In this document: piece by piece, positions 5,968 through 64,000 of the stretch | How the letters are laid out: each line of letters begins with the position of its first letter | Numbering within the stretch: the first letter of the stretch is position 1 | IMG/VR virus record: IMGVR_UViG_3300044712_002337 | Coordinates: 82,564 to 146,563 of that record | DNA length: 64,000 nt | Reading direction: 5' to 3' (one strand) | Source: a virus | Taxonomy: Duplodnaviria; Heunggongvirae; Uroviricota; Caudoviricetes | Notes under the pieces: model-generated | Seen by the model: the letters and a program-made list of their open reading frames with translations, nothing else | What the model was told of the DNA's origin: nothing | The model's database searches: none | Translations under genes and position numbers: made by a program

Positions 5968-7200
5968 AAGATGTGAAGTCCACATAATTGGGTGTTTGAC
6001 GTGTACTTAACGGTTGATATCAGACTCATCGCAACGTCCGCCCAGGCGGAGTCGCTGGCCCGCACGGCGGTCGCCTTCGCCGCCGCCTGCGACCACGTGA
6101 GCGGGTACGCGTTCGAACACAAGCTATTCGGCCGGTTCGCCCTCCAGAAGGCGGTGTACCGCGACGTCCGGGAGAAGTTCGGCCTGTCCGCCCAGACGGC
6201 CTGCCTGGTCGTCGCCCGGGTGGCCGCCGCGTACAAGCGGGAGCGGGGCGTCCGCCACGAGTTCCGCCGGCCGACCGCCACCTACGACGACCGCGTCCTC
6301 GCCGTCGACCTCCCCGCCCGGACGGTCTCCGTCTGGACGGTGGACGGCCGCCTGAAGGGGGTACCGTTCGTCTGCGGGGCGCGGCAGGCCCGCCAACTGG
6401 AGGGCGAGCGGGGCGAGGCCGACCTGGTGTGCCGGGACGGGCGGTGGTACCTGCTGGTGACGGTGACCGCCCCGGAAAAGCCGCTCCGCCCGGCGACGGA
6501 CTACCTGGGGGTGGACCTCGGGGTGTACACCCTAGCGGCGGACAGCGATGGCGTCCGACACTCGGGCAAAGCGGTCAAGAGCGTCCGCCACCGCCACCGG
6601 CGGCTTCGCCGCAAACTCCAGAAGAAGAACACCAAGTCGGCCCTGCGGCGACTTCGCTTGCTGGCCGGGAAAGAAGGAAGGTTCGCTACCCATGTAAACC
6701 ACGTGTTGTCGAAAAAGTTGGTCTCGGTCGCCGAACGCACCGGCCGCGGGATTGCCCTGGAGGACCTCCGGGGTATTCGCGGGCGGATCAGGGCTAGCAG
6801 GGCGACGCGGGCTCAGCTCCACTCCTGGGCGTTCGCCCAGCTCCGGTCGTTCATCGCCTACAAGGCCGCCCTGGCGGGCGTCCCAGTGGCGGTGGTGGAC
6901 CCGGCGAACACCTCTCGCGCGTGCGCCGCTTGCGGGCACTGCGAGAAGGCCAACCGCCGCGGACGAGAGTTTCTTTGTCGCTCGTGCGGTTTTACCGCCG
7001 ACCCCGACACCAACGCGGCGGAGAACATCCGTCGGGCCGCAGTAAACCGGCCGAACGCCTGGAACGGCTCCGCCGTGGCCGGGTAAAGCTCATGACAAAA
7101 ACCTTGGGCGTTTACGTGGCCCGACTTGTCAACGCAGGGCTTATGAGTGACGGAGTAATAGTCACTCCAAGGCTACCACTTGAGAAGAGGATTAGGGGTC
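5968..7200 (+). mobile_element. IS200/IS605-family (IS1341-like, TnpA-less) element carrying tnpB copy 1; boundaries approximate
   Basis: TnpB ORF with subterminal hairpins (ATGTGaagtcCACAT upstream; GAGTGACggagtaatagTCACTC downstream, candidate omega-RNA region). Confidence 0.5.
5992..7086 (+). CDS. tnpB: TnpB (OrfB) RNA-guided nuclease, IS200/IS605 family
   Basis: RuvC-I GVDLG, RuvC-II ALEDL, C-terminal CxxC..CxxC zinc finger and RuvC-III DPDTNAAENI. Confidence 0.85.
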   Translation: MFDVYLTVDIRLIATSAQAESLARTAVAFAAACDHVSGYAFEHKLFGRFALQKAVYRDVREKFGLSAQTACLVVARVAAAYKRERGVRHEFRRPTATYDDRVLAVDLPARTVSVWTVDGRLKGVPFVCGARQARQLEGERGEADLVCRDGRWYLLVTVTAPEKPLRPATDYLGVDLGVYTLAADSDGVRHSGKAVKSVRHRHRRLRRKLQKKNTKSALRRLRLLAGKEGRFATHVNHVLSKKLVSVAERTGRGIALEDLRGIRGRIRASRATRAQLHSWAFAQLRSFIAYKAALAGVPVAVVDPANTSRACAACGHCEKANRRGREFLCRSCGFTADPDTNAAENIRRAAVNRPNAWNGSAVAG

Positions 7201-11353: not shown

Positions 11354-12247
11354 GTGACCAAGGTGCTGTTCGTGTACGGCGGCCGGCGGGTGGAACTGGC
11401 GAACGAGTTCATCCGTCACCACTGTGTGGTGACAGGTTATGAAGCGTCCGAGCGAGTGCCGCTCGCGTCGATCGCCGAAGTGGGCGTCGGCCTACCCTGG
11501 GACCACCCCGAGTTCGCCGACGACGTGGCCGGGACCGCCGAGGAAATCGGCGCCGACCTGATTGTCCCGCTCGGGTGCGGCGCGGCGGCCGTGCTGGCCG
11601 GGGCCGACGTGCCGTGTCCCGTCGTGGCCCACCCGCCCGGCACGGCGAAAGTCTGCCACGACAAGCTCGCCTTCGCCGAGGCGATGAAAGCCCTGCCCGA
11701 CCTGTACCCGTTCCCCCGCCAGGGGAAGCCGTGCGTCAAGAAGCCGCGGCTGGGCTTCGGGGGGAACGGGGTCGTTTACGAAACCGAATACGACCCGGTC
11801 TTCGCTGACAAGGCGTCGGTCTACCAGGCCCGCTTGCGCGGGCCGGAATATTCGGTCGATGCCTACTTCAACCGGGACGGCAGCCTGGCCGCCGCCACCG
11901 TCCGGGAGCGGCTGCGGGTGGCGGGCGGCGAGGTGATTGAGAGCGTGACGGTCGAAAAACCGGAGCTCGCGCAAGCACTCGCTCGTGTTGGAAACATCCT
12001 CCCCTTCCACGGCCCGGTTTGCGCCCAGTTCATGTGCGGTCCTGACGGACCACAGGTGTTGGAGGTGAACGCGCGGTTCGGCGGCGGCTGCACCCTGAGC
12101 GTCGCGGCCGGGATGGACCTGGTCGGGGCGACGCTGGCCGACTTCGTCCGCGGGGAGTCGGTCGACCTCAAACCGGGCGTGCCCGGGGTGTACCTGACGC
12201 GGTCGTACCGCGACCATGTGTTCCAGCCTGAGATGGCCTCTGCGTGA
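11354..12247 (+). CDS. ATP-grasp family ligase
   Basis: VKKPRLGFGGNGV and LEVNARFGGG motifs of the ATP-grasp fold; GTG start. Confidence 0.6.
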   Translation: MTKVLFVYGGRRVELANEFIRHHCVVTGYEASERVPLASIAEVGVGLPWDHPEFADDVAGTAEEIGADLIVPLGCGAAAVLAGADVPCPVVAHPPGTAKVCHDKLAFAEAMKALPDLYPFPRQGKPCVKKPRLGFGGNGVVYETEYDPVFADKASVYQARLRGPEYSVDAYFNRDGSLAAATVRERLRVAGGEVIESVTVEKPELAQALARVGNILPFHGPVCAQFMCGPDGPQVLEVNARFGGGCTLSVAAGMDLVGATLADFVRGESVDLKPGVPGVYLTRSYRDHVFQPEMASA

Positions 12248-12282
12248 TATTTTACCCTTTTAAAATCACGGGGGCACCCCGT
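12248..12282. repeat. cassette (inverted): TGA-TATTTTACCCTTTTAAAATC + hairpin CACGGGGgcaCCCCGTG
   Basis: after stop of ATP-grasp gene. Confidence 0.55.
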
Positions 12283-12309
12283 GGGCCCCGAAGACAAGGA
12301 GTCATCAAC

Positions 12310-12591
12310 ATGACCGTTTCCGAACTCATCAATAAACTCCAGACCTTCCCGCCGAACGCGGATGTGATTTACCAGTACCACTCCGACTGGAGCCCACTAG
12401 AGGAAGACGAGATTACACTCATCACGGCCGAGGAATCAAAGCGGCGAGTGGACGCCAGCAGCAGCAATTACATCGTGGAACGAGCTATTTGCTTCCGTGG
12501 CGGGCGGTACTGCGAGGCGTACTCGCGCGCCAACTACCCGCCGAGCGAGACACCGGTCTACCGAGACGTGGTCACCTTCCCGGGGAACTAA
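12310..12591 (+). CDS. hypothetical protein
   Basis: ATG after AAGGAG SD; 93 aa. Confidence 0.4.
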   Translation: MTVSELINKLQTFPPNADVIYQYHSDWSPLEEDEITLITAEESKRRVDASSSNYIVERAICFRGGRYCEAYSRANYPPSETPVYRDVVTFPGN

Positions 12592-12638
12592 TCCGGGGCT
12601 CCGCCCCCGACCCCGCAACCCGTGAGCGAAGCGAACTC

Positions 12639-13298
12639 ATGACCGTTATCGACCGGCTGAAAGCCCTCCCCCACCAGCACCCCGACTTCTCGGTGTGGCT
12701 GGAGAACGAAGACCATTACTCTTTCTATTATAAAATTTTCCAGGCCCTGAACCCGGACTCCGTCCTGGAGCTGGGCACCTGCCTGGGGTTCTCGCTGGCC
12801 GCCGCGGCGATGGCCCTGCCGGCCAAGGACCTGCACCTGTCCTGGGTGGACGACGAGTCCTACCTGCCGGGGTCGAACGAACTCGCCTGGGAGAACATCT
12901 GGGGCGTGTTCAAGGGGCGGTTCGAGGGGGAGAGCCCGTTCCACCCCCTGCGGTACTGGACCTCGCCCCCGCCGGCCGGGCGGGTGCGGGGCCTCTACCA
13001 GTTGGTCCACGTGGACGGGGACCATTCTTATGACGGGTGTCTGAAAGACCTGGAGTACGCCGAAGCCGTCCGGCCGCAAATCATCCTCGGGCACGACTAC
13101 CACCTGGAAGAGGGCGTCCGGCGGGCCGTTTCCGGGTTCTGTGCGAAGCACTCCTACGCGCACTTCGTCCTCGACCGGTTCAAGCACGGCCTGTTTTGCG
13201 TCGACCGCACCGCCCGCGCCCCGGACACCCTGTGGCGGCTGGCGGCGGCGGACGTGGGCGGGGTGCGGGTGGTCGTCCCGGGGGCCGTGGGGGCGTAG
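12639..13298 (+). CDS. class I SAM-dependent methyltransferase-like protein
   Basis: VLELGTCLGFS (motif I-like) and VHVDGDHSYD; ATG preceded by CGTGAGCGAAGCGAACTC leader. Confidence 0.5.
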   Translation: MTVIDRLKALPHQHPDFSVWLENEDHYSFYYKIFQALNPDSVLELGTCLGFSLAAAAMALPAKDLHLSWVDDESYLPGSNELAWENIWGVFKGRFEGESPFHPLRYWTSPPPAGRVRGLYQLVHVDGDHSYDGCLKDLEYAEAVRPQIILGHDYHLEEGVRRAVSGFCAKHSYAHFVLDRFKHGLFCVDRTARAPDTLWRLAAADVGGVRVVVPGAVGA

Positions 13299-13321
13299 CC
13301 CCCACATGTTAAAAGGGGAAA
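13281..13321. repeat. cassette: hairpin GTGGGGGcgtagCCCCCAC (contains upstream TAG) + ATGTTAAAAGGGGAAAGTC
   Basis: before HAD-like gene. Confidence 0.55.
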
Positions 13322-13630
13322 GTCATCAAGCGAATCGCGTTCGACATCGACGGGGTGTTGCGGCCCGAGGGCCCGGCCGGCGACCGCTACCTGCAGCGGC
13401 CGGACGTGCGGGTGCGGGAGGCGATGCGGCGGGCCAAGGCGGCCGGTCATTTCGTGATGGCGTTCACGGCCGCCCCCTGGGGGGACTACCGGCTGACGAA
13501 ACTCTGGCTGGACGAGCACGGGTTCCCCGTGGACGTCCTGATTTGCGGAAAACCTAACTACGACTGCTTCTACGACGACCGGACGGTCAACTCGCTCTCC
13601 GCCTTCGAGGAGTTCCTGGATGCCCATTAA
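13322..13630 (+). CDS. HAD-superfamily hydrolase-like protein (start codon unresolved)
   Basis: in-frame VIKRIAFDIDGVL (HAD motif I DxDGV) lies upstream of first canonical start (GTG 13355); frame opens after TAA inside ATGTTAAAAGG. Confidence 0.4.
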   Translation, partial: VIKRIAFDIDGVLRPEGPAGDRYLQRPDVRVREAMRRAKAAGHFVMAFTAAPWGDYRLTKLWLDEHGFPVDVLICGKPNYDCFYDDRTVNSLSAFEEFLDAH

Positions 13631-14375
13631 GGTCGCGGTCTGCTCGTCCTTTCGGGATTCCATGGTCTGGCACGGGCGAAAAATCAACCAGGTCGGAAGG
13701 TACTTCCGACAGACGGAAGCGAACGCGGCGGCGGCCGGCGTGACCCCCTCGTACTACCTGGTCGAGGGGAACAGCGCCGACAGGACCTCCGGCTGGCTGA
13801 AGCGGCATCAGCGGCGACTGTTCCCGCGCGAGATTCGCCTGTTCCACCACCACGTGACGGGCTCGGGCGTCGCCTCGGTGGTGAGCGACACCCGGTTCCG
13901 CAACCTGTCCGCCGTCGGGAACACGGTCCTGCGGCCGGCCCGGGACTCGGGGGCGGACTTCGTCCTCTGGATTGAGTCCGACTTCATCATCTCCGACGAC
14001 CTCCTGAAAACACTCCTCGAAGCGACCGAGCGGCCGGACTGGAAGGACACCCTGGGCGTGTGCCCGGTCCCCCTGGCGGGGGACCAGTTTTATGACACGT
14101 GGGCGTTCCAGGGGTTAGACGGGCGTTGGTGGTCGGGCGGGGAAGCCGAATTCTTCAAGACCTATCCGGACCGGTACCTACCCCTGGCGACCGCGGGGAG
14201 TTGCATCCTTTTTAATGGGTCCGCCCTCCGGGCTCACGATTTAGACTTCGGCGAGGCCGGGTGCCTTCCTGGTTTGTGTGGAGGAGGCCAGGCCGCAGGC
14301 CTGAAACTCCTCTGCGACACGTCTATCGTCATCCAACACCCGAACACCGAGAACGTCGGAGGCCGCCTCATATGA
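13620..14375 (+). CDS. putative glycosyltransferase-like protein
   Basis: 251-aa ORF with acidic WIESDFII DXD-like motif; weak. Confidence 0.35.
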   Translation: MPIKVAVCSSFRDSMVWHGRKINQVGRYFRQTEANAAAAGVTPSYYLVEGNSADRTSGWLKRHQRRLFPREIRLFHHHVTGSGVASVVSDTRFRNLSAVGNTVLRPARDSGADFVLWIESDFIISDDLLKTLLEATERPDWKDTLGVCPVPLAGDQFYDTWAFQGLDGRWWSGGEAEFFKTYPDRYLPLATAGSCILFNGSALRAHDLDFGEAGCLPGLCGGGQAAGLKLLCDTSIVIQHPNTENVGGRLI

Positions 14376-15445
14376 TTCGCCAATATACCCCCTGGGTGGC
14401 GACCAACCAGAAGAAGTATGTCAACGACTGCCTGGACGAGAACTACCTGAGTCACCGCGGGAAGTACGGGAAGCTCTTCGAGGCCGGCCTCGCGGCCGCC
14501 GCCAAGAGGAAGCACGCCGCCCTCACCGGCAGCGGCACGGCCGCCCTGTTCGCCATGTACTACGCCGAAGGGCTGGTGGGGAAACGGGTCCTGGCCCCGA
14601 CGCTCACGTACGCGGCCACGATAAATCAGCTGATTTTAATAGGTGCGACGCCGGTGCTCGTGGACTGCGACGAGCGGCACCAGATGGAGATTAACCAAGT
14701 GCGGGAGGGGCTCGCCCGGGGGTTGGCGGACGCGGTGGTGGTCGCCCCGCTCTACGGCGACGCCCCCAACATGCTCGCGTTCGAACTCGCCTGCCACGAC
14801 TTCGGCGTGCCCCTGCTCGTCGACGGGGCCCAGGCGTTCGGAGCCGACTGGAACGGACGTCCGGTGCTCAGTTATGGCCGCTCGGCCACCCTGTCCTTCT
14901 TTGCCGGGAAAACGCTCGGGACGGGGGAAGGCGGGTGCGTGTTCACTGACGACGAGGAGGTCGACCGCCGCGCCCGCGACGCGGTCAACCACAACACCTA
15001 CACGAATTACCGGCACGGCAGCCCGTACTGCACCAACTCGCGGATGACCAACCTGCAGGCGGCGGTCGGGCTGGCCCAGTTGGAGGACGCCCCCGCCATC
15101 CTGCAGAACAAGCGGCGGGTTCATACCGAGTACGCCCGCCTGCTCCCGGCCGCGGTCCTCCGCCCCCGCACGGGTCTGGCCTGGGTGAACGTCGTCCGGG
15201 TGAAGCCGGGACTCACGTACGCGGAGGTCGAGGCGGTCGCAAGAGCGGCCGGCGTGGAACTCCGCCCGATGTTCGCCCCCCTGCACACCCTGCCCGGGTA
15301 CGCCTCGCGGGTGGACACCCCGTTCCCCCTCCGGGCGAGTGAGGTGGCGGCCGCCACGCACGTCAGCCTGCCGAGCGGGCCGACCCTGACCGCGGAAGAA
15401 ATCGGCCGGGTGGCGGACGCGGTACGGCCGTTCCTGGTTGACTAA
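14372..15445 (+). CDS. DegT/DnrJ/EryC1/StrS-family PLP-dependent sugar aminotransferase
   Basis: SGTAAL and SFFAGKTLGTGEGG (PLP lysine region) motifs; ATGA overlap start. Confidence 0.75.
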   Translation: MIRQYTPWVATNQKKYVNDCLDENYLSHRGKYGKLFEAGLAAAAKRKHAALTGSGTAALFAMYYAEGLVGKRVLAPTLTYAATINQLILIGATPVLVDCDERHQMEINQVREGLARGLADAVVVAPLYGDAPNMLAFELACHDFGVPLLVDGAQAFGADWNGRPVLSYGRSATLSFFAGKTLGTGEGGCVFTDDEEVDRRARDAVNHNTYTNYRHGSPYCTNSRMTNLQAAVGLAQLEDAPAILQNKRRVHTEYARLLPAAVLRPRTGLAWVNVVRVKPGLTYAEVEAVARAAGVELRPMFAPLHTLPGYASRVDTPFPLRASEVAAATHVSLPSGPTLTAEEIGRVADAVRPFLVD

Positions 15446-17225: not shown

Positions 17226-17495
17226 GTGTCACCCGACCTGAAGCGCCGCCTGTCCGCCGCCGTCGGCGGCGTCATCGAGGCGAACGAGGCGGCCCGCGCC
17301 GCCCACAACCGGGCGGCCGACGCCCGGGCCTGGCTGGAGCAGACGTTCGGCGACTGGACGGGGAAGGTGGTGCTGGAGCACAACGGGAAGCAGATTCTGG
17401 TCACCCGCACGAGGGACGAGGCCCGCCTCGCCCGCTGGTCTTGGGAGGAGATAGAGTCAACCACCCCACGGCTAAAGCCGGGGGCTTGCGGCTGA
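17226..17495 (+). CDS. hypothetical protein (3' end overlaps tnpB copy 2 terminus)
   Basis: GTG preceded by CCCGCGAGGGCCCCGAGCC leader variant; last ~24 nt overlap convergent tnpB. Confidence 0.35.
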   Translation: MSPDLKRRLSAAVGGVIEANEAARAAHNRAADARAWLEQTFGDWTGKVVLEHNGKQILVTRTRDEARLARWSWEEIESTTPRLKPGACG

Positions 17496-18590
17496 CGGGG
17501 CGGACCCCGTCGCCACCATAGGCCGGTTGGCGGCGGCCCGATGAGCGATGTTGAGGGCGGCGTTGTGGTCGGCATTGGCCGTGCGGGAGCACGACTTACA
17601 CCGAAACCGAACGCCCTTGCGGTTGGTTTTGGCGACGTGCCCGCAGGCGGCACACGTCTGCGAGGTGTAGGCGGGCTCGACCGCCCACACCGGCACCCCG
17701 GCGTGAATAGCCTTGTAGGTCACGAACGCCCGCAGTCGAGCGAACGACCAGGAGGAAAAAGCGTGGCGAACCGTTTTCTGAACCCGCCGCCCCCGCCGCC
17801 GAATCCCGGTCAGGTGTTCGAGGGCGATGGCGTGGTTCAGTGCCTTGGCCTTGCTCACAATCTGCGAACTGACGACGTGGTCGACGCCCTTGCGGAAGCG
17901 GGCCTCCCGCCCGCCGTTCTTCTTCAACCGCCGCTTGGCCGACTTCGTGCCGACCGCCTGGAGGGCCGCCCGGCGGCGGGCGTACCGCCCGACGACGGTT
18001 TTGTACTGGTCGTGCCCGAGGGCGGTGCCGTCCGACAGGGTGGCGAGGGTGCGGACGCCGAGGTCCACCCCGAGAACGCCGGTCGTCGGCCGCTCCGGTC
18101 CCGCGGGAACGTCGACGGCCACCGCCAGCCACCAGGACGGGCCTTCCCGGATGAGTTTCGCCTCCCGCCAGCCGTGGGCGAGCAGGGCCGCCTGGTAGTC
18201 GCCGCAGGCGAACGGGAGTTTAATCCGGCCGGCGGTCGCTGTGGTGATTCCGACCTCGCCGGACTTGCGGTCGTCGGCCGGTTTCAGCTTGAACAACCGG
18301 CAGTCCACCGGGACGGCCCCGCCCGGCTTGAACACCGGGCACCGGCGGCGGTCCCGGGCGAACACAGCGGCCGCCTTGGCCACCGCCTTGACGGCCCACT
18401 GGGCGGGCAGGCCGAACCGGTCTCGCAGGGGCCGGTAGACGAGCTTCTGCAGGCGGAACCCGTTGAACTCCTTCTCCCGGAACCCGACCGCGGCCGCCTC
18501 CGACGCGGCGGCGTTCACCGCGGCGAGGGTGGCCGTCAGCAGGGCGGCCTGCTCGGGCGTCGGTCGGAGGTGGAGGCGGACGGTTTTCAC
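17472..18590 (-). CDS. tnpB: TnpB (OrfB) RNA-guided nuclease, IS200/IS605 family, copy 2
   Basis: GTG start after AGGAG; GVDLGVRT, ALEHL, CAACGH...CKSCS zinc finger, NADHNAALNI; long ORF extension upstream rejected. Confidence 0.85.
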   Translation of the reverse strand: MKTVRLHLRPTPEQAALLTATLAAVNAAASEAAAVGFREKEFNGFRLQKLVYRPLRDRFGLPAQWAVKAVAKAAAVFARDRRRCPVFKPGGAVPVDCRLFKLKPADDRKSGEVGITTATAGRIKLPFACGDYQAALLAHGWREAKLIREGPSWWLAVAVDVPAGPERPTTGVLGVDLGVRTLATLSDGTALGHDQYKTVVGRYARRRAALQAVGTKSAKRRLKKNGGREARFRKGVDHVVSSQIVSKAKALNHAIALEHLTGIRRRGRRVQKTVRHAFSSWSFARLRAFVTYKAIHAGVPVWAVEPAYTSQTCAACGHVAKTNRKGVRFRCKSCSRTANADHNAALNIAHRAAANRPMVATGSAPSAASPRL

Positions 18591-19633: not shown

Positions 19634-20233
19634 GTGACGGAGCGAGACGCCTTCTTGGCCGCCATCCGGGCGACGCCCGACGACGACCTGCCCCGTCTTG
19701 TGTTCGCCGACTGGTTGGACGAGAACGGGCAGCCGGACCACGCAAGAGCCATCCGACACTACATCCACCGCCGCACGGTCCACACGAGTGCGGCGGGGTA
19801 CCCCGCCGAGTTGTGGTTGTTGGAGGGGGAAGACGGGTGGGCCAAGGAGATTGCTCCGGCTGTCCCGGGGGTGGCGTACACCGTCCGCCGCGGGTTCGTC
19901 AGCGGCGTCGAATGCCGGTGGGCTGACTGGTTCGGCTGGCCATGCTCATGCGAGGCTCGCGACCGGCGGTGCGATGGCGGGTGTACGGGCGGACGCATCG
20001 GCCGCGGTCCCGAATTGGTGAGGACCCACCCGATTGAGCGGGTCCGTTTTAGTGATGTCACCCCGCTCTCCGTTCACAACCCCACCGGCCCTCCGTACTG
20101 GACCCAGGGGCTGTACCCGCATTTAGTCCCGTGGGGGTACGCCCCGCTCACCTTCGAGAGTCCCGAGGCGGCGGAGGAGGCCACCTCCCGGCAGGCGCTG
20201 GCCTGGGCGCGGGGGCACCCCCCTTGTACTTAA
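19634..20233 (+). CDS. TIGR02996-type repeat-companion domain protein (paralog 2)
   Basis: MTERDAFLAAIRATPDDDLPRLVFADWLDENGQPDHARAIR; GTG preceded by TGTGAGCGGAGCGAACA. Confidence 0.55.
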   Translation: MTERDAFLAAIRATPDDDLPRLVFADWLDENGQPDHARAIRHYIHRRTVHTSAAGYPAELWLLEGEDGWAKEIAPAVPGVAYTVRRGFVSGVECRWADWFGWPCSCEARDRRCDGGCTGGRIGRGPELVRTHPIERVRFSDVTPLSVHNPTGPPYWTQGLYPHLVPWGYAPLTFESPEAAEEATSRQALAWARGHPPCT

Positions 20234-20251
20234 TATTTTTAGCAGTATAAT
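20224..20251 (+). promoter_or_regulatory. sigma-70-like promoter for excisionase gene (near-leaderless)
   Basis: TTGTAC -N16- TATAAT; start codon about 9 nt downstream of -10. Confidence 0.5.
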
Positions 20252-20259
20252 TACGGCTA

Positions 20260-20544
20260 GTGACATCCCACTGCCTAGACCTGTTGGCCGAGACGGTCCT
20301 CACCCTGCCCCAGGCGGCGGCGGTGCTGGCGGTCGACGCCGCCACCGTCGGGCGGTACGTGCGGGCGGGCCGGCTGGAGGGGGTGCGGGTGGGCGGGCGG
20401 TGGAAGACCAGCCGGGAGGCGGTCGCCCGGTTCCTGGCCGGCACCCAGCCGCGGGCGAAAGCCGACCCGCCCGCCCGGACGCCCGCCGGCCGCCGCGGGG
20501 AGAAGGCCCTCGCCCGGCTGCGGGCGATGGGGGTGAAGGTCTAG
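20260..20544 (+). CDS. excisionase-like / AlpA-type HTH DNA-binding protein
   Basis: LTLPQAAAVLAVDAATVGRYVRAGRLEGVRVGGRWKTSREAV winged-helix pattern; divergent from integrase. Confidence 0.5.
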   Translation: MTSHCLDLLAETVLTLPQAAAVLAVDAATVGRYVRAGRLEGVRVGGRWKTSREAVARFLAGTQPRAKADPPARTPAGRRGEKALARLRAMGVKV

Positions 20545-21758
20545 CCCGACTTCTTGGCGGCGTCGACCGCGTCCTTGTCCACCGGCCGCGAATACCGCTC
20601 GGTCGTCCGGGCGTTCTTGTGCCCGAGCAGCTTCTGGGCGACGTCCAGCCCGTGCTCGCCCCGGAACTCCACCCCGGCGGCGTGCCGCAGCTGGTTGCTG
20701 GTCCACTTCGCCACCCCCGCCCGCCCGCACGCCCGCTCGATGGCCTGGTTGTACGTCGCCGTCGTGTACCACAGCCCGACCCGGGCGGACGGCCCCTTCT
20801 CCGCCTGCTGCCGCTCCTTCACCTGGGACGGGTACCTCGGCCGCCGCTCGGCCCGCCGCCGGGCGAGCTGCTCGCGGGCGGAGGTGCGGGGGCGGAACAC
20901 CGGCAGGTCGGGCTCGGCCCAGTCCAGGTACGGGGCGAGCACCGCCTGGGCGGCGGGGCCGACGTACACCTCCCGCGTCTCCCCGGCGTGCGCCCGCTTG
21001 TGCCGGTCCGGCCGGAACACCCACACCGCGGCCCCGCGGTCAATCAGGCCGGGCGTCAGCCCGCACACGTCCTGCGGGCGGCACCCGGTCAGCCGGTGGA
21101 ACCGCACCATGGCGGCGACGGTCGGGGTGAGGTGCGGGAGGGTGGCCTCCACGTCCGCGTCGCCCACCGCCTCGACCGTCCGCTGCTCGGGGGCCCTCGT
21201 CTTCCCCTTCTTCAGCCCGTCCACGCTCCGCAGCTGGAACCACTTGCCGGCGGGCACCAGCTCCATCTTCTCCCCCCACCGGAACACCGCCCGCACCCGC
21301 CGCGCCTGGGCGTTCACGTGCTCGCGGGTCCACCCCTTGGCCACCATCGCGTCCCGCACGCGGATGAGCGCCCGCGGCCCGAACTCGGCGGCCGGGTCGA
21401 GCGGGCAGACGGTGCACAGCACCCCGACGGCCGCCTTGTAGTACTTCGTCTCCGACGCCGAGTACCCGACCAGCTCGGCCGCCAGGAACGCCTCGGCCAG
21501 TTCGGCCACGCACACCCCGCCCTTGGGCGGCCGCGCCGGCCCGGGCGGGGCGGGGGGCGGGGCGGGCGGGGCGTCGGGGTGCCCGGCCCGCCACTCGGCC
21601 AGGAACGCCTGGTACGCCGCCTTCGACTCCTCGCTCCCGTACCGGCCCAGGTACACCCGCACCCGGTCCCCCTTCTGTTCGTCGTACACGAAAACGAACG
21701 CCCGGTCGGTGGCGCGGTGGCGGCGGTAGGTGGGGACGACGTTGCGGGGTCGGGACAC
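20541..21758 (-). CDS. int: tyrosine recombinase / phage integrase
   Basis: C-terminal catalytic region LRHAAGVEFRGEHGLDVAQKLLGHKNARTTERYS (R..H-x-x-R..Y). Confidence 0.85.
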   Translation of the reverse strand: MSRPRNVVPTYRRHRATDRAFVFVYDEQKGDRVRVYLGRYGSEESKAAYQAFLAEWRAGHPDAPPAPPPAPPGPARPPKGGVCVAELAEAFLAAELVGYSASETKYYKAAVGVLCTVCPLDPAAEFGPRALIRVRDAMVAKGWTREHVNAQARRVRAVFRWGEKMELVPAGKWFQLRSVDGLKKGKTRAPEQRTVEAVGDADVEATLPHLTPTVAAMVRFHRLTGCRPQDVCGLTPGLIDRGAAVWVFRPDRHKRAHAGETREVYVGPAAQAVLAPYLDWAEPDLPVFRPRTSAREQLARRRAERRPRYPSQVKERQQAEKGPSARVGLWYTTATYNQAIERACGRAGVAKWTSNQLRHAAGVEFRGEHGLDVAQKLLGHKNARTTERYSRPVDKDAVDAAKKSG

Positions 21759-21759
21759 G

Positions 21760-21811
21760 GGGTTTTGGGGTCAGGTTTTCGGGGTCGGGGGGTTTTGGGG
21801 TCAGAAGTGTA
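21760..21811. repeat. arm-type direct repeats GGTTTTGGGGTCAG (x2) between int and tRNA fragment
   Basis: same 13-14-mer recurs at 22083-22130. Confidence 0.55.
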
Positions 21812-21864
21812 CCGCGGATATGCCTGCGTTTCCAGCCTTTTTTCGGTTTTCCCCTCGCGAAGCG

Positions 21865-21907
21865 AGTCGCTTATGAAGCGATTGCTCTAACCACTGAGCT
21901 ACCCCGC
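21865..21907 (-). pseudogene. truncated tRNA-Met(CAT) 5' fragment (positions ~1-43), candidate att core
   Basis: GGCGGGGTAGCTCAGTGGTTAGAGCAATCGCTTCATAAGCGAC: acceptor 5' strand, U8, D-arm, anticodon arm with CAT; no T-arm or 3' acceptor follows. Confidence 0.45.
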
Positions 21908-22082
21908 CTGATACCCTCATCTTAGGCCCCCGCGGCGGGCCGGCAAGGGGAATCGCCCCGCGACTTTTCCCTGGGATTTCAGGCTTCTTTTCCTGGGGCC
22001 CGGCGGGCGGGCGGGCCGCCGGGGCGGGCCGGCGGCGGGGGACGGGCCGGGCGGCAGACCGGGCGAACCGGGCGGTGTTTTG

Positions 22083-22135
22083 GGGTCAGCGGCGGGGGTT
22101 TTGGGGTCAATTGGGGTCAGCTTGACCCCAAAAGG
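22083..22135. repeat. arm-type repeats GTTTTGGGGTCAG (x2) plus 21-nt palindrome TTGGGGTCAGCTTGACCCCAA
   Basis: direct copies of the 21760 repeats; near-perfect inverted repeat. Confidence 0.55.
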
Positions 22136-22156
22136 AACGGGGCGGGTTTTACCCGC
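22127..22156 (-). terminator. intrinsic terminator for gene 22184..23072
   Basis: GGGGCGGGtaaaaCCCGCCCC then GTTCCTTTTGGGG on minus strand. Confidence 0.55.
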
Positions 22157-22183
22157 CCCGGAGGGAATGGTCTGACTTTGTCT

Positions 22184-23072
22184 TCACGGGCGAGCGGAGC
22201 GAGCCCAAGAAAGGAGCCCCTCCGAAACCCAAGACGTCGCCTCGGCGGCGGTCGCGGCGCCGACGTAACGACTGGTGAACGAGTGTTCCCTGGAAGATGA
22301 GTCCGCCAGGCCGGCCCTCAGAACGCACTCGAACACGTCGGCCGGCAGGACGGCCGACTCCGGTACGCCGTCGCTCGGCCGGGGCCGGTCTGCCGAATAG
22401 AAGCAGTAGTACCGCCCGTTCCAGTGCGGGGCCCGGTCGGTCGCCCGCACCGACTCGACCGGGTGGGCCCGCGCGACCCCCGGTCCGAGGCCGGGGGTGA
22501 ACAGGGTGGGCACCCGCCGGGTGCCGGGGCGGTCCATCCGGGACACCTCCGCCGTCTCCCACGTCCCGTACCAGTCGGCGAACCGGCACACCGCCGCGCG
22601 GACGAACCCGCGGCGCCAGAACAGTCCCTCCCCGCTCTCGTCCCGGCCCTGTCCAATTCTCTGCGGGACACCTCTGGTCTCCACCCAGGTGTGGTCCAGC
22701 AGGTGCCGCAGGGCCCGGTCGTCCAGGCCGAACGCACAGTTCGGGTCCGGGCAGTCCCGCCGGGACCAGGCGGAGCACTCCCGGCACGGCGTACACCGGG
22801 CGGCGTGGACTTGGGTTCGGATGAAGTCCGCCCTCGCGGCGTTCGCGTTCGGGGCAACCGCCTTGCCGCGGCAAACCCCGCACTCGTGCCCCCAAACCGG
22901 CTGGGTCACCCCGAGCCGCCGGGACAAGTCACAGACGCCCGTCCCGCCGCACTTCTCGCACCGCGTCGCGGCGGCGTTCTCGTCCAACCAGTCCGCGTAC
23001 ACCAGGCGTTCGAGGTCCGACGCCGGGTTGGCCCGGATGGCGGCGAGCAGGGCTTCTTCCTCGGTCATGCGT
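22184..23072 (-). CDS. TIGR02996-type repeat-companion domain protein (paralog 3), Cys-rich
   Basis: MTEEEALLAAIRANPASDLERLVYADWLDE; ATG preceded by GTGAGCGGAGCGAACGC; longer ORF start rejected. Confidence 0.55.
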
Positions 23073-23175
23073 TCGCTCCGCTCACGTTTCGGGTCTGGGG
23101 CGCAACCCCAGGGGGTGTGGGGTGCAACCCCAGGGGGTGTGGGGCAAAGCCCCACATGTTAAAAGGAGGAAGTCA
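23073..23175. repeat. cassette on minus-gene strand: TGA-CTTCCTCCTTTTAACA + 3 hairpins (22-nt tandem) + GTGAGCGGAGCGAACGC + ATG
   Basis: between TIGR02996 paralogs 4 and 3. Confidence 0.6.
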
Positions 23176-23893
23176 TCCGGGCCTCCGCCAGCAGCTCGGC
23201 GCTCAAGGCCGCCCGCGCCGCCCCGGGGGACTCGAACGACTCGGTGAGGCACCTCGGGCTGGTTGCCCCGGCCATGAAAATCCTCCCAATCCCCCGCGGG
23301 GCGTTCTCGCGGACAGGCACCAGGAAGACTCGGTCTCCCATCCGGTGGGTGGCGATATCGGTGACGTCCACTTTGGTGGCAAGCGGGTAGGACGGGAGAT
23401 TTTTCCGCAGCCAATCCAGCCGCCCCTTCACCCGGTCGACGAACCCGCGGGCGAACGTCACGCCGGCCGCCCCGTCGTGACCGAAGTTGCCGCAGTACGT
23501 CGCCACCCGCCCCGACCAGTCGTGCCAGTTCCGTTCGAGCAGGTCTCGCTCGCGGGAGAGCAACGCCCGCACCTCCCCGCCGAGCGGCCGGATGTTCGGG
23601 CCCGTCATCGGGGCGTTGTCGCAGCACTGTTCGCACTCCGCCGAACAGAGCGACCACCCCTTGTCCTCCGGCCACTCCACCCAGAGGGCGCCGCACGCCG
23701 CGCACGAGTGGGTGGGTGCGGGGGCTCCGTACGGTAGCACGACGCCGCGGCGGTGGAGCTCGACCTGGACGCGGGCGAAGTCCGCCCTTTCCCCCTCCCC
23801 GGTCTCGTCCAAAAAGTCGGCGTACACCAGGCGGGGCAAATCGTCGTGCGGACGTGCCACAATGGCGGCCAGGAGGGCGTCGGAGTCCGTCAT
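23159..23893 (-). CDS. TIGR02996-type repeat-companion domain protein (paralog 4), Cys-rich
   Basis: MTDSDALLAAIVARPHDDLPRLVYADFLDETGEGERADFARV; internal ATG chosen. Confidence 0.55.
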   Translation of the reverse strand: MTDSDALLAAIVARPHDDLPRLVYADFLDETGEGERADFARVQVELHRRGVVLPYGAPAPTHSCAACGALWVEWPEDKGWSLCSAECEQCCDNAPMTGPNIRPLGGEVRALLSRERDLLERNWHDWSGRVATYCGNFGHDGAAGVTFARGFVDRVKGRLDWLRKNLPSYPLATKVDVTDIATHRMGDRVFLVPVRENAPRGIGRIFMAGATSPRCLTESFESPGAARAALSAELLAEARMTSSF

Positions 23894-26395: not shown

Positions 26396-27640
26396 ACGAC
26401 CGCCGGCTTCAGCCGGCGGCTTTGTGCCTCAGCGGTCTGGGCACTGATATGGGTGGTTTACGGCACCCCTAGCCGCGATGTTGCGCGCGGCGTTCTGGTC
26501 GGCGTGGGCGGCGTGCCCGCACGACGTACAGGAGAAGCGGTCTTGGGACTTCCGGCTCGCCTTGTCGATGTGCCCGCAGGCGAAGCACGTCCGCGACGTG
26601 TTGCGGGGGTCCACCGCCACCAGCGGCACCCCGGCCAACTTCGCCTTGTAGGTGAGGCAGTGCCGGAGGTGGTGGAACGCCCAGTTGGACAGCCGGGAGC
26701 GGTGCCGCGTGCGAACCGTTTTCTCCGTCCTGGTGCGGACGCCGTTGAGGTCTTCGACGGCGATACCCACGCCCAGACGGAGTGCCTTGGCGACAACCGT
26801 TTTGGAGATGCGGTGGTTCTCCCCCTTTTGGTAACGGGACTGCTTACCGGCGAGCGCCTTCAGCCGCCGCTTGGCGGACTTGGTTCCCCGGCGTTGGAAG
26901 CTTTGACGGGCCTTCAGGTGCCGCTTGCGGTGGCGTTCCACGTCCGCCCCGGTGTGCCGCTCGCCCTCGGAATCGGTGAGGACGTTGGCGATGCCCAAAT
27001 CCACCCCGAGGAAGGCCGACACCTCGGCGGCGGGCGGTTCGGGCACGTCGGCGGTGCAGTACAGGAAGAACTTCCCCCCGCGGTACACCAAGTCGGCCTG
27101 CCCCTTGAGGGCGTGCAGCGTGCCCGTGAAGTAGTCGCCGGCCACGTAGGGCACCAAAATCCGCCCGCCCATCGTGAGCAGGCTCACCCGGTCGACGCCC
27201 TTGAAGGAGAACGTCCGCTGGTCGTAGGTGACAGCCCCCAGGGGTTTGAACACCGGGCACTGGGTCTTGTCGCGGGCGAAGCACTCGACCGCCTTGCCGA
27301 TGGCGCGGACGGCGGTCTGCGAGGACACGCCGAACGTGTCCCGGAGGGCGCGGTAGCAGAGCTTGTGGATGGACGGCTGGGAGAACACCCGGTTCTCAAA
27401 CCCCACCCGCGCCGCTTCGGTGGCGGCGGCGTTGAAGGCCCGCATGTACGCGAGCAGGGCTGGCGCTTGCCCGGCGTCCGGCAGCAGTTTGATTTGCACG
27501 ACGAGTTTCACGACGGCATTTTAGGATGCCGTTTGTCCGTAATCAACCCCGGAGAGCGGCTTACCTCTGTCGCCTGAAGGCGACAGTCTCACGCCGCGAA
27601 TTTATGAGAGCGGGCTGTCGCCCGCATGTTAAAAAGGAAA
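26396..27640 (-). mobile_element. IS200/IS605-family element carrying tnpB copy 3; boundaries approximate
   Basis: 5' subterminal hairpins CTGTCGCCttcaGGCGACAG and GGCATcctaaaATGCC; 3' hairpin GCCGCCGGCTgaaGCCGGCGG. Confidence 0.5.
26429..27511 (-). CDS. tnpB: TnpB (OrfB) RNA-guided nuclease, IS200/IS605 family, copy 3
   Basis: GVDLGIANV, AVEDL, CFACGH...CTSCG zinc finger, HADQNAARNI. Confidence 0.85.
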   Translation of the reverse strand: MKLVVQIKLLPDAGQAPALLAYMRAFNAAATEAARVGFENRVFSQPSIHKLCYRALRDTFGVSSQTAVRAIGKAVECFARDKTQCPVFKPLGAVTYDQRTFSFKGVDRVSLLTMGGRILVPYVAGDYFTGTLHALKGQADLVYRGGKFFLYCTADVPEPPAAEVSAFLGVDLGIANVLTDSEGERHTGADVERHRKRHLKARQSFQRRGTKSAKRRLKALAGKQSRYQKGENHRISKTVVAKALRLGVGIAVEDLNGVRTRTEKTVRTRHRSRLSNWAFHHLRHCLTYKAKLAGVPLVAVDPRNTSRTCFACGHIDKASRKSQDRFSCTSCGHAAHADQNAARNIAARGAVNHPYQCPDR

Positions 27641-34486: not shown

Positions 34487-34553
34487 GTCGGAGGTAAGGG
34501 AGTCGAACACCTTCCACCCGGGTTATGAGCCCGGGGCGAGCACCGGCCCACCT
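34487..34553 (-). ncRNA. tRNA-like element with CAT anticodon stem-loop (CCGGG-CTCATAA-CCCGG), non-canonical D/T arms
   Basis: acceptor GGAGGTG/TACCTCC with G-U; anticodon loop canonical; T-arm fails. Confidence 0.25.
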
Positions 34554-34575
34554 CCGCCGTCACGTCAACACCCGC

Positions 34576-34603
34576 ATATTAACTGTTTTTATAAAGTAGT
34601 CAA
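34576..34603 (-). promoter_or_regulatory. sigma-70-like promoter driving the tRNA-like RNAs / downstream operon
   Basis: minus strand TTGACT -N16- TAATAT. Confidence 0.5.
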
Positions 34604-34690
34604 CACGACTTCGTCGTGATTTTAAAAGGGGTGACTCACACGGGCGATTTTCCTCTTTTAACAGGCGGGCCCCGCCCGCGGGGTGTCCCC
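34604..34690. repeat. composite cassette: GATTTTAAAAGGGGTGACTCA ... GATTTTCCTCTTTTAACAG + hairpins GCGGGCcccGCCCGC / GCGGGGtgtCCCCGC after dnaE-C stop Confidence 0.5.
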
Positions 34691-34691
34691 G

Positions 34692-37190
34692 CTAAATCTG
34701 CCAAAACTCCGTCGCCACGAACCCGTCCCCCCGCCGGGACGGCTCCAGCGCCACCTGCAGCACGTTGCCGTCCCGCAGGAGGGCGCGGTGTTTCTCATAA
34801 TCGTCAGGAAAACAGACGATTTCGTTGAGCGAGCCCGACTCGTCGCCCAGGGTGAGCCAGGCCATGTCCCGCCCCTTCTTGGTGCGGAACGCCCGCGAGC
34901 TTTTCAGGACGGCGCACACGCGGACCTTCTCCTTGCGGCCGTCGAGCAGGTCCTTGATGGGGGCGGTGCGGCCGGACACGTCGGCCCCGGCCAGCTTGGT
35001 GTAGGTGACGGGCACCCCCAGGGCCTTCTCCTCCAGCTCGGCAATCACCCGGGGCGTGTCCGCCTCGCTCGTGGGCGGGTGGTCCAGGAGGTAGGCTTCG
35101 TCCAGGAGGTCCTGAGTCGTGTTTTTGTTGGCGGCGGCGCCGCCCTCCTTCTTCGGCCTGGCAGCCGAACGAATTAGCTCCGCCAGGCTATCGGCTTCAC
35201 CCGCGTGGCTGACCAGCCACGCATGGACGGTCTTCTTGGACTTCAGCCGCGCCACGCACTTGGCCTCGTTCGCCTGACGTAACCGCGGCACCGAAAAGTG
35301 GGCGAACGCCCCCGCGTAGGCGAGCCCCTCCATCACTTTAACGGGCACGGTCGTGCCGACCTTCAGCAGGAAGTGGGTCCAGGTCCAGTCGGACAAAGGC
35401 TTTCCGCTCGACTCCTCTTCGGCTTGGATGGCCTCGACCATCTTTTCCACGTGCCCGTCCCCCACCCCGCTCACGTCGCACAGCCCGAACACGGCCGCGT
35501 CCCCGTCCAGGTCCACGCGGGCCGAGCGGGTGCGGACGTCGGGCGACCGAACCTTAATGTTCGCGGAGCGGGCGTCGTTCACCAGGAGGGACGCCTCCTC
35601 CTCGCACCCCTTCTTCTTCCCCTTGAGGAAGGCCAGGGCGAGCCAGTTGGCGTAGAAGGCGAGGGGGAAGTGGGCCTTCAGGTAGGCGGTCTTCACCGCC
35701 TTACACCCGTACGAATAAGCGTGGCTGTTGCAGACCACCAGCCCGTCGTTCACCACGAAGTTGTGGTTCGGGGCGTCCATAGTCACATCGTACGTCTCGC
35801 ACTCGCCGTCCGGCTCCACCGACACCACCCGCGTTTCCACCCGCGGGGCTCCCTTCTCCCCCCGCTTCACCCGCCCGCAGGCGTACTCCTTCTTCTTGTG
35901 GCAGGAGACGCACAGGAGTTGCAGGTTCTCGGGCTCATTGTTCGAGCGGTCGCCGTCGATGTGGTCCATCTCCAGGCGGCCCTCGGTCTTGCCGCACAGT
36001 TCGCACACCTTCGCCTTGGTCGCCTTCACCGCCTTAAACGAGGTGAACCCGCCGCCGGTGTACGCGTAGTTGTTCTCGCCGAACGCCCCGTTCACGAACC
36101 GGCCTTCCACGTACGGTCGGGTCTCGTTCGTGTACTTGCTGAAGTTGTACCGCTTCCCGTTCCCCTTCTCGTACTCCCCGCGGCGGAACACGACGACCTC
36201 CATCCCGAGCAACACCCGCCGGGCGATTTCAGCCACCGTCAGTTCGCCATCGGTGGTCGGCACCTTATGGTTGCCCGTCAGGCGGACTGACTGACCATCG
36301 GAGGTCGTGAGCCGGAACACCGGGCGGTAGCCGGCCGGCTGGATGTCGCGGATGAGGTTCGGGCGGACCCGCCCGTCCTCGCACATGGACAGCCCCTGGC
36401 CGTAGTGGCCAAGCCGCATCCACTTCCGGCGGAGCACGTCGTGCCCGTGTTTTTGGGCGTACCGGATGTCGTTCCGGATGCGGTACATGTGGCCGACCGT
36501 GTAGCCCACCCCCTTCACCTGCCCGCCCGTGCCGTACCGGACAATAATCGTATCCTCTGACGCGCACTTATTAAATGAGTACCGTGCCGACTCCTGAATC
36601 CAGTCGAACAACTGGACGGCGAGTTCGTAGGGGACGGCCCCGTACTCTTTGGCCCGCTCCAGGAACTTAAGTCGAGTGTCTGCCATGAGCTGCGCATCCT
36701 TCTTCCCGGCTGCCTTCCGTAGGAGCTGCGCCTCGGCTTTAGAAAAACCCGCAACCACTTCCGACAACTTGCAAATCTGTTCTTGAAAGACGACGACGTT
36801 GTAAGTCTTTGCCAGTACTTCATCTACGACGGGGTGTAGAGACTCCGTCTGCTCGTCCCCGTTCTTGCGGAGGACGTAGTGCTCCGTCATCGACACTCCA
36901 TTACTATCACGAGCTTTTAAACAACCGGGCCGGAGCAGACTAACGAGCGCACAGATGTGTTCCTCGTTCTCCGGCTTCAACATCTTGGACCACTTCTGGC
37001 CGAGGTACTCCTCCAGCTGGAACACCCCCTTGGTCTGCCCGTGCGCGAACAGGTTCGCCACCGCCGAGCAGAACGGGGCCTTGCGGATGTCCACGTCCAG
37101 GGCCGGCAGCCCGCCCGGGTAGGCCGGCGGCCCCACGACCGGCCAGGAGCACCCGCATTTTTTAAAGTGGTAAATTTCGTTCGTAGGCAC
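34692..37190 (-). CDS. dnaE: DNA polymerase III alpha (DnaE) C-terminal half with inserted HNH intein
   Basis: GVFQLE, VVFQEQ, FNK|C...intein...N|SHAYSYGCKAVKTAYLKAHFP; GTG start. Confidence 0.8.
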   Translation of the reverse strand: MPTNEIYHFKKCGCSWPVVGPPAYPGGLPALDVDIRKAPFCSAVANLFAHGQTKGVFQLEEYLGQKWSKMLKPENEEHICALVSLLRPGCLKARDSNGVSMTEHYVLRKNGDEQTESLHPVVDEVLAKTYNVVVFQEQICKLSEVVAGFSKAEAQLLRKAAGKKDAQLMADTRLKFLERAKEYGAVPYELAVQLFDWIQESARYSFNKCASEDTIIVRYGTGGQVKGVGYTVGHMYRIRNDIRYAQKHGHDVLRRKWMRLGHYGQGLSMCEDGRVRPNLIRDIQPAGYRPVFRLTTSDGQSVRLTGNHKVPTTDGELTVAEIARRVLLGMEVVVFRRGEYEKGNGKRYNFSKYTNETRPYVEGRFVNGAFGENNYAYTGGGFTSFKAVKATKAKVCELCGKTEGRLEMDHIDGDRSNNEPENLQLLCVSCHKKKEYACGRVKRGEKGAPRVETRVVSVEPDGECETYDVTMDAPNHNFVVNDGLVVCNSHAYSYGCKAVKTAYLKAHFPLAFYANWLALAFLKGKKKGCEEEASLLVNDARSANIKVRSPDVRTRSARVDLDGDAAVFGLCDVSGVGDGHVEKMVEAIQAEEESSGKPLSDWTWTHFLLKVGTTVPVKVMEGLAYAGAFAHFSVPRLRQANEAKCVARLKSKKTVHAWLVSHAGEADSLAELIRSAARPKKEGGAAANKNTTQDLLDEAYLLDHPPTSEADTPRVIAELEEKALGVPVTYTKLAGADVSGRTAPIKDLLDGRKEKVRVCAVLKSSRAFRTKKGRDMAWLTLGDESGSLNEIVCFPDDYEKHRALLRDGNVLQVALEPSRRGDGFVATEFWQI
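35727..36566 (-). mobile_element. intein (Hint + HNH endonuclease) in DnaE at the FNK/SHA site
   Basis: block A CASEDTIIV, block B TGNH, HNH HIDGDRSNNEPENLQLLCVSCH, C-terminal NHNFVVNDGLVVCN followed by Ser. Confidence 0.7.
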
Positions 37191-39215: not shown

Positions 39216-39602
39216 TCATTTCTGATGGGAAACCCACTCCCACATCGCGTCCCGGGCGGCCTGGTAATAGTCTTTCTTCACCCGCTCGTACCGCCCGCAC
39301 GCCGGCCACGACTCCAGCATGGCGTCGACCATCCGCAGCCACGTCGAAACCTGCCCCACGGTCAAGTCGTGGGCGAACTCCAGCTTGTGCAGGCGGCTGT
39401 CCAGCCAGCCGTCGTACCCGCCGTCGCACTCGAACCAGGAAACGCCCGCGCCGAGCAGCCGGTCGACGGACTCCAGGTACGAATGACGATTCACCCCGTC
39501 GGCCTGCCACTCCGCCCACGGCCGGGTCAGCACCCGCGGGTCGATATCTTCTCGCCCCGGCCACCAACACCCCGTCGGGGCCGGGACGCGGATGTCAATC
39601 AT
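39216..39602 (-). CDS. hypothetical protein
   Basis: 128-aa Trp-rich ORF. Confidence 0.45.
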   Translation of the reverse strand: MIDIRVPAPTGCWWPGREDIDPRVLTRPWAEWQADGVNRHSYLESVDRLLGAGVSWFECDGGYDGWLDSRLHKLEFAHDLTVGQVSTWLRMVDAMLESWPACGRYERVKKDYYQAARDAMWEWVSHQK

Positions 39603-63797: not shown

Positions 63798-63821
63798 AGG
63801 GCTTATAAAGTAGAAATTATT

Positions 63822-64000
63822 CAGCACGGCTTGGGGGGCTCCACCCGGATTTGGACGTGGGTGCCGGCCGGGCCACCCGTCACCTGGTCGTACTCCCACG
63901 TCAGCCGCGGGTCGCCGTCGTCCAGGTCCAGCTTCTCGGCGAGCCGGTCGCGGACGGCCTTGAACCCGCCCGCTAAATTGTCACTATCAAGCGAACGTCC
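63822..64000 (-). CDS. hypothetical protein (5' partial, continues beyond window)
   Basis: open frame to window edge, TGA at 63822. Confidence 0.3.

Follow-up and report, generated by a model that had tools for sequence, protein, structure and literature searches.

The 64,000-nt window examined here (positions 82,564 to 146,563 of the IMG/VR virus record IMGVR_UViG_3300044712_002337, class Caudoviricetes) contains a tyrosine integrase gene, int, preceded by the first 42 positions of a tRNA-Met(CAT) gene, which are set between two groups of repeats. We read positions 21763-22133 as the intact phage attachment site (attP) of a temperate phage of ~95 kb from Gemmataceae (Planctomycetota), which would integrate into the tRNA-Met(CAT) gene of its host by way of the 5' part of the tRNA instead of the usual 3' part. 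We put the probability of this reading at about 0.72. All coordinates follow the numbering of the window, and the order of elements is read on the int strand (minus).

Anatomy of the attachment site

On the minus strand, 21908 corresponds to tRNA position 1 and 21867 to position 42, and the fragment was identical at 42/42 positions to tRNA-Met(CAT) in 22 species-representative genome loci. The loci carry the labels Gemmata, Limnoglobus (among them the complete chromosome of L. roseus), Fimbriiglobus and other planctomycetes, and one contig bears the label Alcaligenaceae. This CAU tRNA could be either elongator Met or lysidine-type Ile2. At 21 of the 22 loci the 42-mer is the 5' part of an intact tRNA-Met(CAT) gene of 73-74 nt; at the remaining locus, L012, the fetched DNA stops inside the tRNA gene. 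The original prediction, made from the letters of this DNA without database searches, had taken a 43-nt segment to be a core matching the 5' part of a host tRNA-Met, a less common arrangement, and had proposed a search of host genomes for the gene. The gene was present in Gemmata, Limnoglobus and Fimbriiglobus and the 5' assignment gained support, while the length was corrected to 42 nt, as position 43 is C in the window versus T in every host. No alignment extends beyond that position, and upstream of tRNA position 1 the window and the host loci share no sequence identity.

The claim that the site holds no intact tRNA held on re-inspection: ARAGORN, at its default and at a relaxed threshold, called none there, and neither did Rfam at the gathering threshold. 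The Rfam tRNA model aligned to the fragment with 28.2 bits (E = 0.0015) and skipped the T-arm, in agreement with the earlier description of a fragment lacking both T-arm and 3' end. When a T-arm or acceptor remnant was sought in the 21 nt past position 42, they resembled tRNA 3' parts no better than shuffled sequences did, and no second copy of the core and no tRNA 3' part were found across the window. The part from crossover to 3' end that a classical, 3'-restoring attP carries is missing from this site. What it carries is the tRNA 5' part up to the predicted crossover (positions 1-42), as expected of a 5'-replacing element, and its block of host identity spans the anticodon stem-loop, as in tRNA attP sites with a crossover in the anticodon loop.

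On the int strand, the site opens with a terminator-like hairpin, which marks the outer edge of attP. The hairpin is followed by four copies of an 11-mer (one inverted), a spacer, the boxes TTGCCG-N16-TAAGAT, a 10-base spacer and the tRNA 5' part; a 21-nt filler, the motif CGAAAAAAGGCTGGAAACGCAGG and three further copies of the 11-mer then lead to the int start codon (Table 1). The 11-mer, TTTTGGGGTCA, occurs exactly on the plus strand with starts at 21763, 21793, 22078 and 22099 and on the minus strand at 22123-22133; degenerate copies at 21775-21787 and 22111-22119 bring the set to five exact and two degenerate. The copies are confined to the two flanks of the tRNA fragment, and no comparable copy was found elsewhere in the 64 kb (0.65 exact or one-mismatch matches expected by chance). 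Such two-sided repeats are the arms of a lambda-type attP, to which Int is predicted to bind. Because the copy at 22123-22133 is inverted, the distal arm contains two palindromes, at 22111-22131 (9+3+9 nt) and at 22099-22133 (12-nt arms). The additional repeats and the 21-nt palindrome reported earlier were therefore real, as were the direct repeats placed at 21760 and 21798, except that those coordinates were off by a few bases and the second repeat starts at 21791-21793.

Whether the site was attP or a junction of an integrated element (attL or attR) had been left open. It is attP, because TTTTGGGGTCA stands on both sides of the fragment and genes of a mobile element also lie on both sides. 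The int-side flank holds int and the excisionase-like gene, xis. The far flank encodes Dam, a split DNA polymerase III (PolIII) alpha, DnaB, a Toprim primase, a RecA-like protein, ribonucleotide reductase and a PD-(D/E)XK exonuclease. The contig with the site has 95,375 bp, and a relative whose attP is likewise internal has 95,951 bp.

The boxes ahead of the fragment correspond to those of the host. At 13 of the 22 host tRNA-Met loci the gene is preceded by TTG(T/C)C(A/G)-N16-TA(A/G)(A/G)(A/T)T-N10; at six further loci the distance to position 1 is off by no more than 2 nt, or the spacer by 1 nt. The window, with TTGCCG-N16-TAAGAT-N10, has exactly the geometry of the 13 loci. The pattern TTGYCR-N16-TARRWT matched once on both strands of the window, at attP, where 0.04 matches were expected, and by our own arithmetic the chance of such a match within 2 nt of the right place and on the right strand is ~1e-6. 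The putative tRNA-type promoter would be directed into int in the free and the integrated state alike.

Table 1. Features of the attachment site, the genes beside it and the tRNA-like gene of the window.
Feature	Position	Strand	Remarks
Excisionase-like winged helix-turn-helix (HTH) protein, 94 aa	20260..20544	+	PF12728 HTH_17 (4.3e-10); PHROG excisionase families; TIGR01764 'excise'
Tyrosine integrase, 405 aa	20541..21758	-	PF00589, phrog_1
P' arm-type repeats (int-proximal)	21763..21803	-	TGACCCCAAAA on int strand; exact at 21763-21773 and 21793-21803, degenerate at 21775-21787; last copy ends 4 nt ahead of int start codon
CGAAAAAAGGCTGGAAACGCAGG motif	21823..21845	-	By alignment, common to the sequence 3' of the tRNA end in attP/attL of relatives
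Filler, 21 nt, CTCGCTTCGCGAGGGGAAAAC	21846..21866	-	In the place of tRNA variable region, T-arm and 3' acceptor strand; not tRNA-like
Identity block, tRNA-Met(CAT) positions 1-42	21867..21908	-	Anticodon loop TTCATAA at 21877..21871
Predicted crossover region TTCATAAGCGA	21877..21867	-	tRNA positions 32-42
Host-type tRNA promoter boxes (putative), TTGCCG-N16-TAAGAT	21919..21946	-	10 nt ahead of tRNA position 1
Spacer, distal arm to promoter	21947..22077	-	Holds AGCCTGAAATCCCAGG element (about 21970-21985) and a GC-rich run
P arm-type repeats (int-distal)	22078..22133	-	22078-22088, 22099-22109 and partial 22111-22119 co-directional with P' copies; 22123-22133 inverted
Terminator-like GC hairpin	22138..22160	-	10-bp stem, then T-rich tail; closes the TIGR02996-domain gene 22184..23068
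tRNA-Met(cat) call, 70 nt	34487..34556	-	ARAGORN; sole tRNA called in the window; AT-rich at about 34565-34620

The integrase, its relatives and the predicted crossover position

The identification of a tyrosine integrase was upheld by matches to phrog_1 and to PF00589, the latter at 40.4 bits against a cutoff of 27.1. The catalytic residues R227, K254, R358, H380 and Y389 are conserved across the integrase clade, with Asn355 taking the place of His-II in nearly all of it. An AlphaFold model with a predicted local distance difference test score (pLDDT) of 84 divides into three domains, of which the N-terminal one combines a beta-sheet with a helix and the other two are core-binding and catalytic; residues 12-59 were modelled as three strands and a helix, after which a flexible linker follows. 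In comparison with the PDB, the best matches of the model were to full-length lambda Int, and the fold also resembled XerH and Cre. The modelled architecture is that of a lambda-type heterobivalent integrase with a predicted arm-binding N-terminal domain, and it fits arm-type binding to the TTTTGGGGTCA repeats. No relatives of the integrase were found among cultured phages. The same protein (P0001), differing only in how the GTG start was translated, is encoded on a JGI contig of 176,391 bp; this is nearly twice the length of the 95,375 bp Logan contig and could represent a lysogen, a concatemer or a larger genome.

The small HTH protein matched TIGR01764 at 32.5 bits (cutoff 28.8). By family and by location it belongs with the excisionases (Xis, or recombination directionality factors), and a role in directionality is predicted for it. 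This agrees with the earlier call of an excisionase-like HTH, but the description of xis and int as divergently promoted did not hold, as xis and int converge on overlapping stop codons (20541-20544). An AT-rich stretch with TATAAT lies just 5' of xis (20224-20259), and a scan for consensus sigma-70 promoters upstream of xis found nothing.

The contexts of relatives were readable at 47-59% integrase identity. Every readable relative carries the tRNA 3' part, and the window alone carries the 5' part, with the putative promoter, on the int strand. The attP of L029 (59% integrase identity) runs from Met position 32 to the 3' end, and that of L030 (53%) starts at Met position 30/31. In L037 (55%) and L035 (53%) a Met variant is carried from position 30 and from about position 31, respectively, and L002 (47%) carries the 3' part of a different, Ile-like tRNA. 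These five are all placed on the int strand. The attP of L032 (57%) holds the Met 3' part inverted with respect to int (1225-1278, with the int start at 1435). On one tRNA the clade therefore displays three attP geometries, the classical one, the inverted one of L032 and the 5'-type of the window. Arm-like repeats occur on both sides of the core in the five co-oriented attP sites and in L032, analogous repeats stand directly ahead of the int starts of the relatives, and CCTGAAA/TTTCAGG-type motifs occupy the spot in their attP that corresponds to the spacer between distal arm and promoter in the window.

At five loci (L031, L033, which is also L034, L018, L007 and L022) the tRNA-Met is intact and int lies 90-130 nt downstream of it. 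Direct reading of L031 and L033 showed host-type genes on the upstream side; for the three loci of Gemmataceae metagenome-assembled genomes, L018, L007 and L022, the arrangement was taken from BLAST coordinates. This layout is that of a classical attL. From the attP and attL loci of the relatives it follows that the tRNA-Met gene is the habitual target of the clade.

A joint alignment of the window with classical attP, attL and attB (the host site) left a single common block, TTCATAAGCGA, preceded by G(C/T) and covering positions 30/32-42. If the clade cleaves attB at one place, this single block puts both cuts in the anticodon loop and 3' stem. We infer from the aligned sequences that the crossover lies within positions 32-42, that is, within the 11-bp TTCATAAGCGA. 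The relatives carry about positions 31-76 on the int side of this predicted crossover, whereas the phage of the window carries positions 1-42 and the promoter on the far side. The sequence AAAAAGGCTGGAAA..CAGG is likewise common to the window and to the post-tRNA sequence of L030, and just 1 of 3000 shuffles attained the score of this match; hence the int-proximal arm is homologous, and remodelling has been confined to the core region.

A motif of the type (A/T)(A/T)TCAGGC / CCTGAAA recurs across the attP and attL sites of the clade, 10-25 nt past the tRNA 3' end and again between distal arm and core. It was located at 21823-21845 and 21970-21985 in the window, at 5860-5875 in L029, 5903-5925 in L030, 4918-4932 in L033 and 1008-1025 in L037. 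The motif may be a candidate site for an accessory protein, either Xis or a host factor.

Predicted integration and alternative explanations

In the proposed mechanism, the integrase would occupy the TGACCCCAAAA arm sites of the two flanks, and strand exchange with the host tRNA-Met(CAT) gene would take place in the anticodon loop and 3' stem, at positions 32-42 (TTCATAAGCGA). The attL product would consist of the host promoter, tRNA positions 1-42, the phage filler, the P' arm and int. The attR product would consist of the P arm, the phage promoter and the phage 5' part joined to the host 3' part; as the phage block does not differ from the host gene, the tRNA-Met of attR would be wild-type. 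The attL junction is predicted to read as host upstream sequence, tRNA 1-42 and CTCGCTTCGCGAGG, and the attR junction as TAAGATGAGGGTATCA, tRNA 1-42 and TGGGTCGCCGGTTCAAA. As a query for public assemblies we propose GATGAGGGTATCAGGCGGGGTAGCTCAGTGGTTAGAGCAATCGCTTCATAAGCGATGGGTCGCC.

Several observations weigh against 5'-type integration. None of the 22 genome loci proved to be a lysogen with the predicted attL and attR; they are ordinary host loci or classical attL, and the sequence upstream of the tRNA was host-type or host-derived at 21/21 intact host loci. The boxes TTGCCG-N16-TAAGAT agree with the consensus at 8 of 12 positions and fall below the threshold of a generic sigma-70 scan, which gave no match in attP; the boxes are a putative tRNA promoter, a call made solely by comparison with the host loci. 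The spacing from distal arm to core is ~70-90 bp longer than in the relatives and could impair the geometry of the intasome. A tRNA(CAT)-like gene is present at another place in the phage (34487..34556), so that rebuilding of the target tRNA may not be what makes lysogeny tolerable.

Two loci with odd upstream sequence, L007 and L018, had been considered as lysogens and were rejected, the oddity being a leader between promoter and tRNA. With the integrase as query, metagenomes yielded a single match, which was short and weak, and scans of viral contigs gave nothing useful.

The tRNA-like gene, like the host-type promoter and the 3' block carried by the closest relatives on the same tRNA, was missed by the original prediction. 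Its acceptor stem of 7 bp is perfect, its anticodon loop, CTCATAA, has the anticodon of the integration target, and its D and T arms are poor. It scored below the Rfam tRNA threshold, matched tRNA-Sec weakly (29.4 bits) and had a fold z-score of -0.42. Its anticodon stem is 6 bp long (CCCGGG/CCCGGG), with three G:C pairs by the loop, while the stem of the target is ATCGC/GCGAT. Three G:C pairs of the anticodon stem next to the loop are a trait of initiator tRNAs, and we take the stem of the phage gene to look initiator-like. The gene was tried as the intact partner of an integrated element and rejected, as its sequence is unrelated and non-canonical and shares no core with the fragment.

The same gene gives rise to the strongest of the alternatives, which we nevertheless consider improbable. 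Integration would cost the host its tRNA(CAU) gene, for example through poor expression of the rebuilt copy, the phage gene would compensate for the loss as in tRNA-dependent lysogeny, and the 5' block would be a by-product. The gene is the only tRNA called by ARAGORN in the window and has the anticodon of the target, and phages that disrupt the tRNA at attB while carrying a cognate tRNA are documented (PMC10865867). The short core of tRNA-dependent lysogeny (~10 bp) is not what is seen here, as 42 bp and a putative promoter would suffice to rebuild the wild-type gene, and the phage gene is non-canonical with an anticodon stem unlike that of the target, so that a common isotype is doubtful.

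Slightly less probable again is a site that does not represent productive integration at all. It could be a relic, in which a classical attP lost the tRNA 3' part, or a product of assembly, in which the left side of attR was joined to the right side of attL across the 42-bp repeat of a lysogen. The 21 nt past position 42 do look like filler, the sequence is known from metagenome or SRA assemblies only, and the integrase recurs on the 176 kb contig from JGI. Against a relic, a promoter at the exact host spacing would not be expected in a decaying site, and the core, both sets of arms, the catalytic residues of Int and xis are all intact. A collapse of lysogen junctions during assembly would still imply a real 5'-type arrangement.

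A prophage junction (attL or attR) left by disruption of a chromosomal tRNA-Met is a very unlikely reading of the site. A 5' tRNA fragment followed directly by int has the look of an unrestored left junction, but TTTTGGGGTCA arms stand on both sides, the far side holds phage replication genes and not host genes, and the 3' fragment is nowhere in the window. A truncated phage-borne tRNA gene placed beside int by chance can be practically dismissed: phages often carry tRNA genes and fragments, but this one lies midway between the arm repeats, matches the host gene with 100% identity and ends exactly where the blocks of the relatives' attP start to overlap it.

A wider scenario can be sketched, which we regard as tentative and rather doubtful. 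In a clade with one crossover site in tRNA-Met, the identity block may have shifted recently from the 3' to the 5' side, perhaps through capture of a whole tRNA gene, so that in lysogens the phage would supply the promoter of the host tRNA(CAU) and the displaced host promoter would read into int. Capture of the whole tRNA followed by loss of its 3' part is a plausible origin, but no significant remnant of a T-arm is seen in the 21-nt filler. Should the scenario be true, the window and L032 would form part of a natural series in the evolution of attP geometry and would include a prophage takeover of host tRNA expression.

Known systems and other genes of the window

Integrase modules that target tRNA genes in the classical manner were reportedly treated by Williams in 2002. 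The window resembles the classical lambda-type tRNA modules in its predicted heterobivalent integrase, flanking arm repeats, a core in the anticodon stem-loop, an adjacent excisionase-like HTH gene and a block long enough to rebuild the gene. L029, L030, L035 and L037 are ordinary members of that group on the same tRNA. The window differs from it in that the block lies on the 5' side (1-42) together with a putative promoter, and the 3' part is absent. The common core of classical systems measures 30-45 bp and includes the tRNA 3' half (PMC10865867).

Recombination at the 5'-distal part of tRNA genes has been documented as 'considerably less frequent' than at the 3' part, in a sentence that cites Zhao & Williams 2002 and archaeal cases (PMC6563490). 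As in the elements mentioned there, it is the 5' part of the tRNA that would be replaced here, not the 3' part. Set against that sentence and the cited elements, the present case appears to differ in residing in a large Planctomycetota phage, in a clade that otherwise uses the 3' part of, mostly, the same or a variant tRNA-Met, and in a promoter geometry that can be read against the host. The attP of the window is a further case of the rare but already known 5'-type use of tRNA genes.

The tRNA-dependent lysogeny of Fionnbharth and other actinobacteriophages (PMC10865867) also combines a tyrosine integrase, an attB in a tRNA gene and a phage tRNA-like gene with the anticodon of the target. In contrast to those phages, the core in the window is 42 bp with a putative promoter versus about 10 bp, the tRNA is predicted to be rebuilt, and the tRNA-like gene of the phage departs from the canonical form and has a doubtful isotype. 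In ICEKp1, int is driven from the host tRNA promoter in the integrated state only (PMC13023037). The arrangement here is similar in that int lies downstream of a tRNA promoter on the same strand and could be reached by read-through. It differs in that int would have a tRNA-type promoter ahead of it whether the phage is free (its own copy, in attP) or integrated (the copy of the host, in attL), and no switch is predicted.

What the site adds to these cases is the contrast within one clade on one tRNA, a readable promoter and the host group. It is a clean example, at the level of sequence, of 'reversed' tRNA use in a barely studied system of Gemmataceae phage and host, and the relatives with the classical form on the same tRNA pin the predicted crossover to 11 bp without an experiment. 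Programs that rely on finding a displaced tRNA 3' fragment would set the ends of a prophage of this kind wrongly. The int gene and its attP are also a candidate pair for integration tools in Gemmata and Limnoglobus.

Proteins with a TIGR02996 domain (model rpt_mate_G_obs, Gemmata-type) bracket int and attP and are encoded at 19634..20233 (+), 22184..23068 (-) and 23159..23893 (-). The presence of the three fits a Gemmataceae host.

The split PolIII alpha is encoded by two open reading frames (ORFs) ~2.4 kb apart, at 39595..41682 (-) and 34692..37190 (-). One has the PHP and NTPase domains and the other has the finger, HhH and OB domains; the second ORF contains an HNH/intein-like insert at about aa 285-488. 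A block of ~50% GC at 62760-63830, against ~69% GC for the genome, lies inside the ORF 62721..63899 (-), which has a LAGLIDADG_3 match, and is probably a homing endonuclease or intein insertion.

Three TnpB-type ORFs (OrfB_IS605 with a Cas12f1-like TNB domain) are dispersed over the window, at 5992..7086 (+), 17472..18590 (-) and 26429..27511 (-). Genes for ATP-grasp, methyltransferase-like, CAP59-type transferase-like and DegT/DnrJ aminotransferase proteins are clustered at 11354..15445 (+), which suggests a pathway of sugar or DNA modification.

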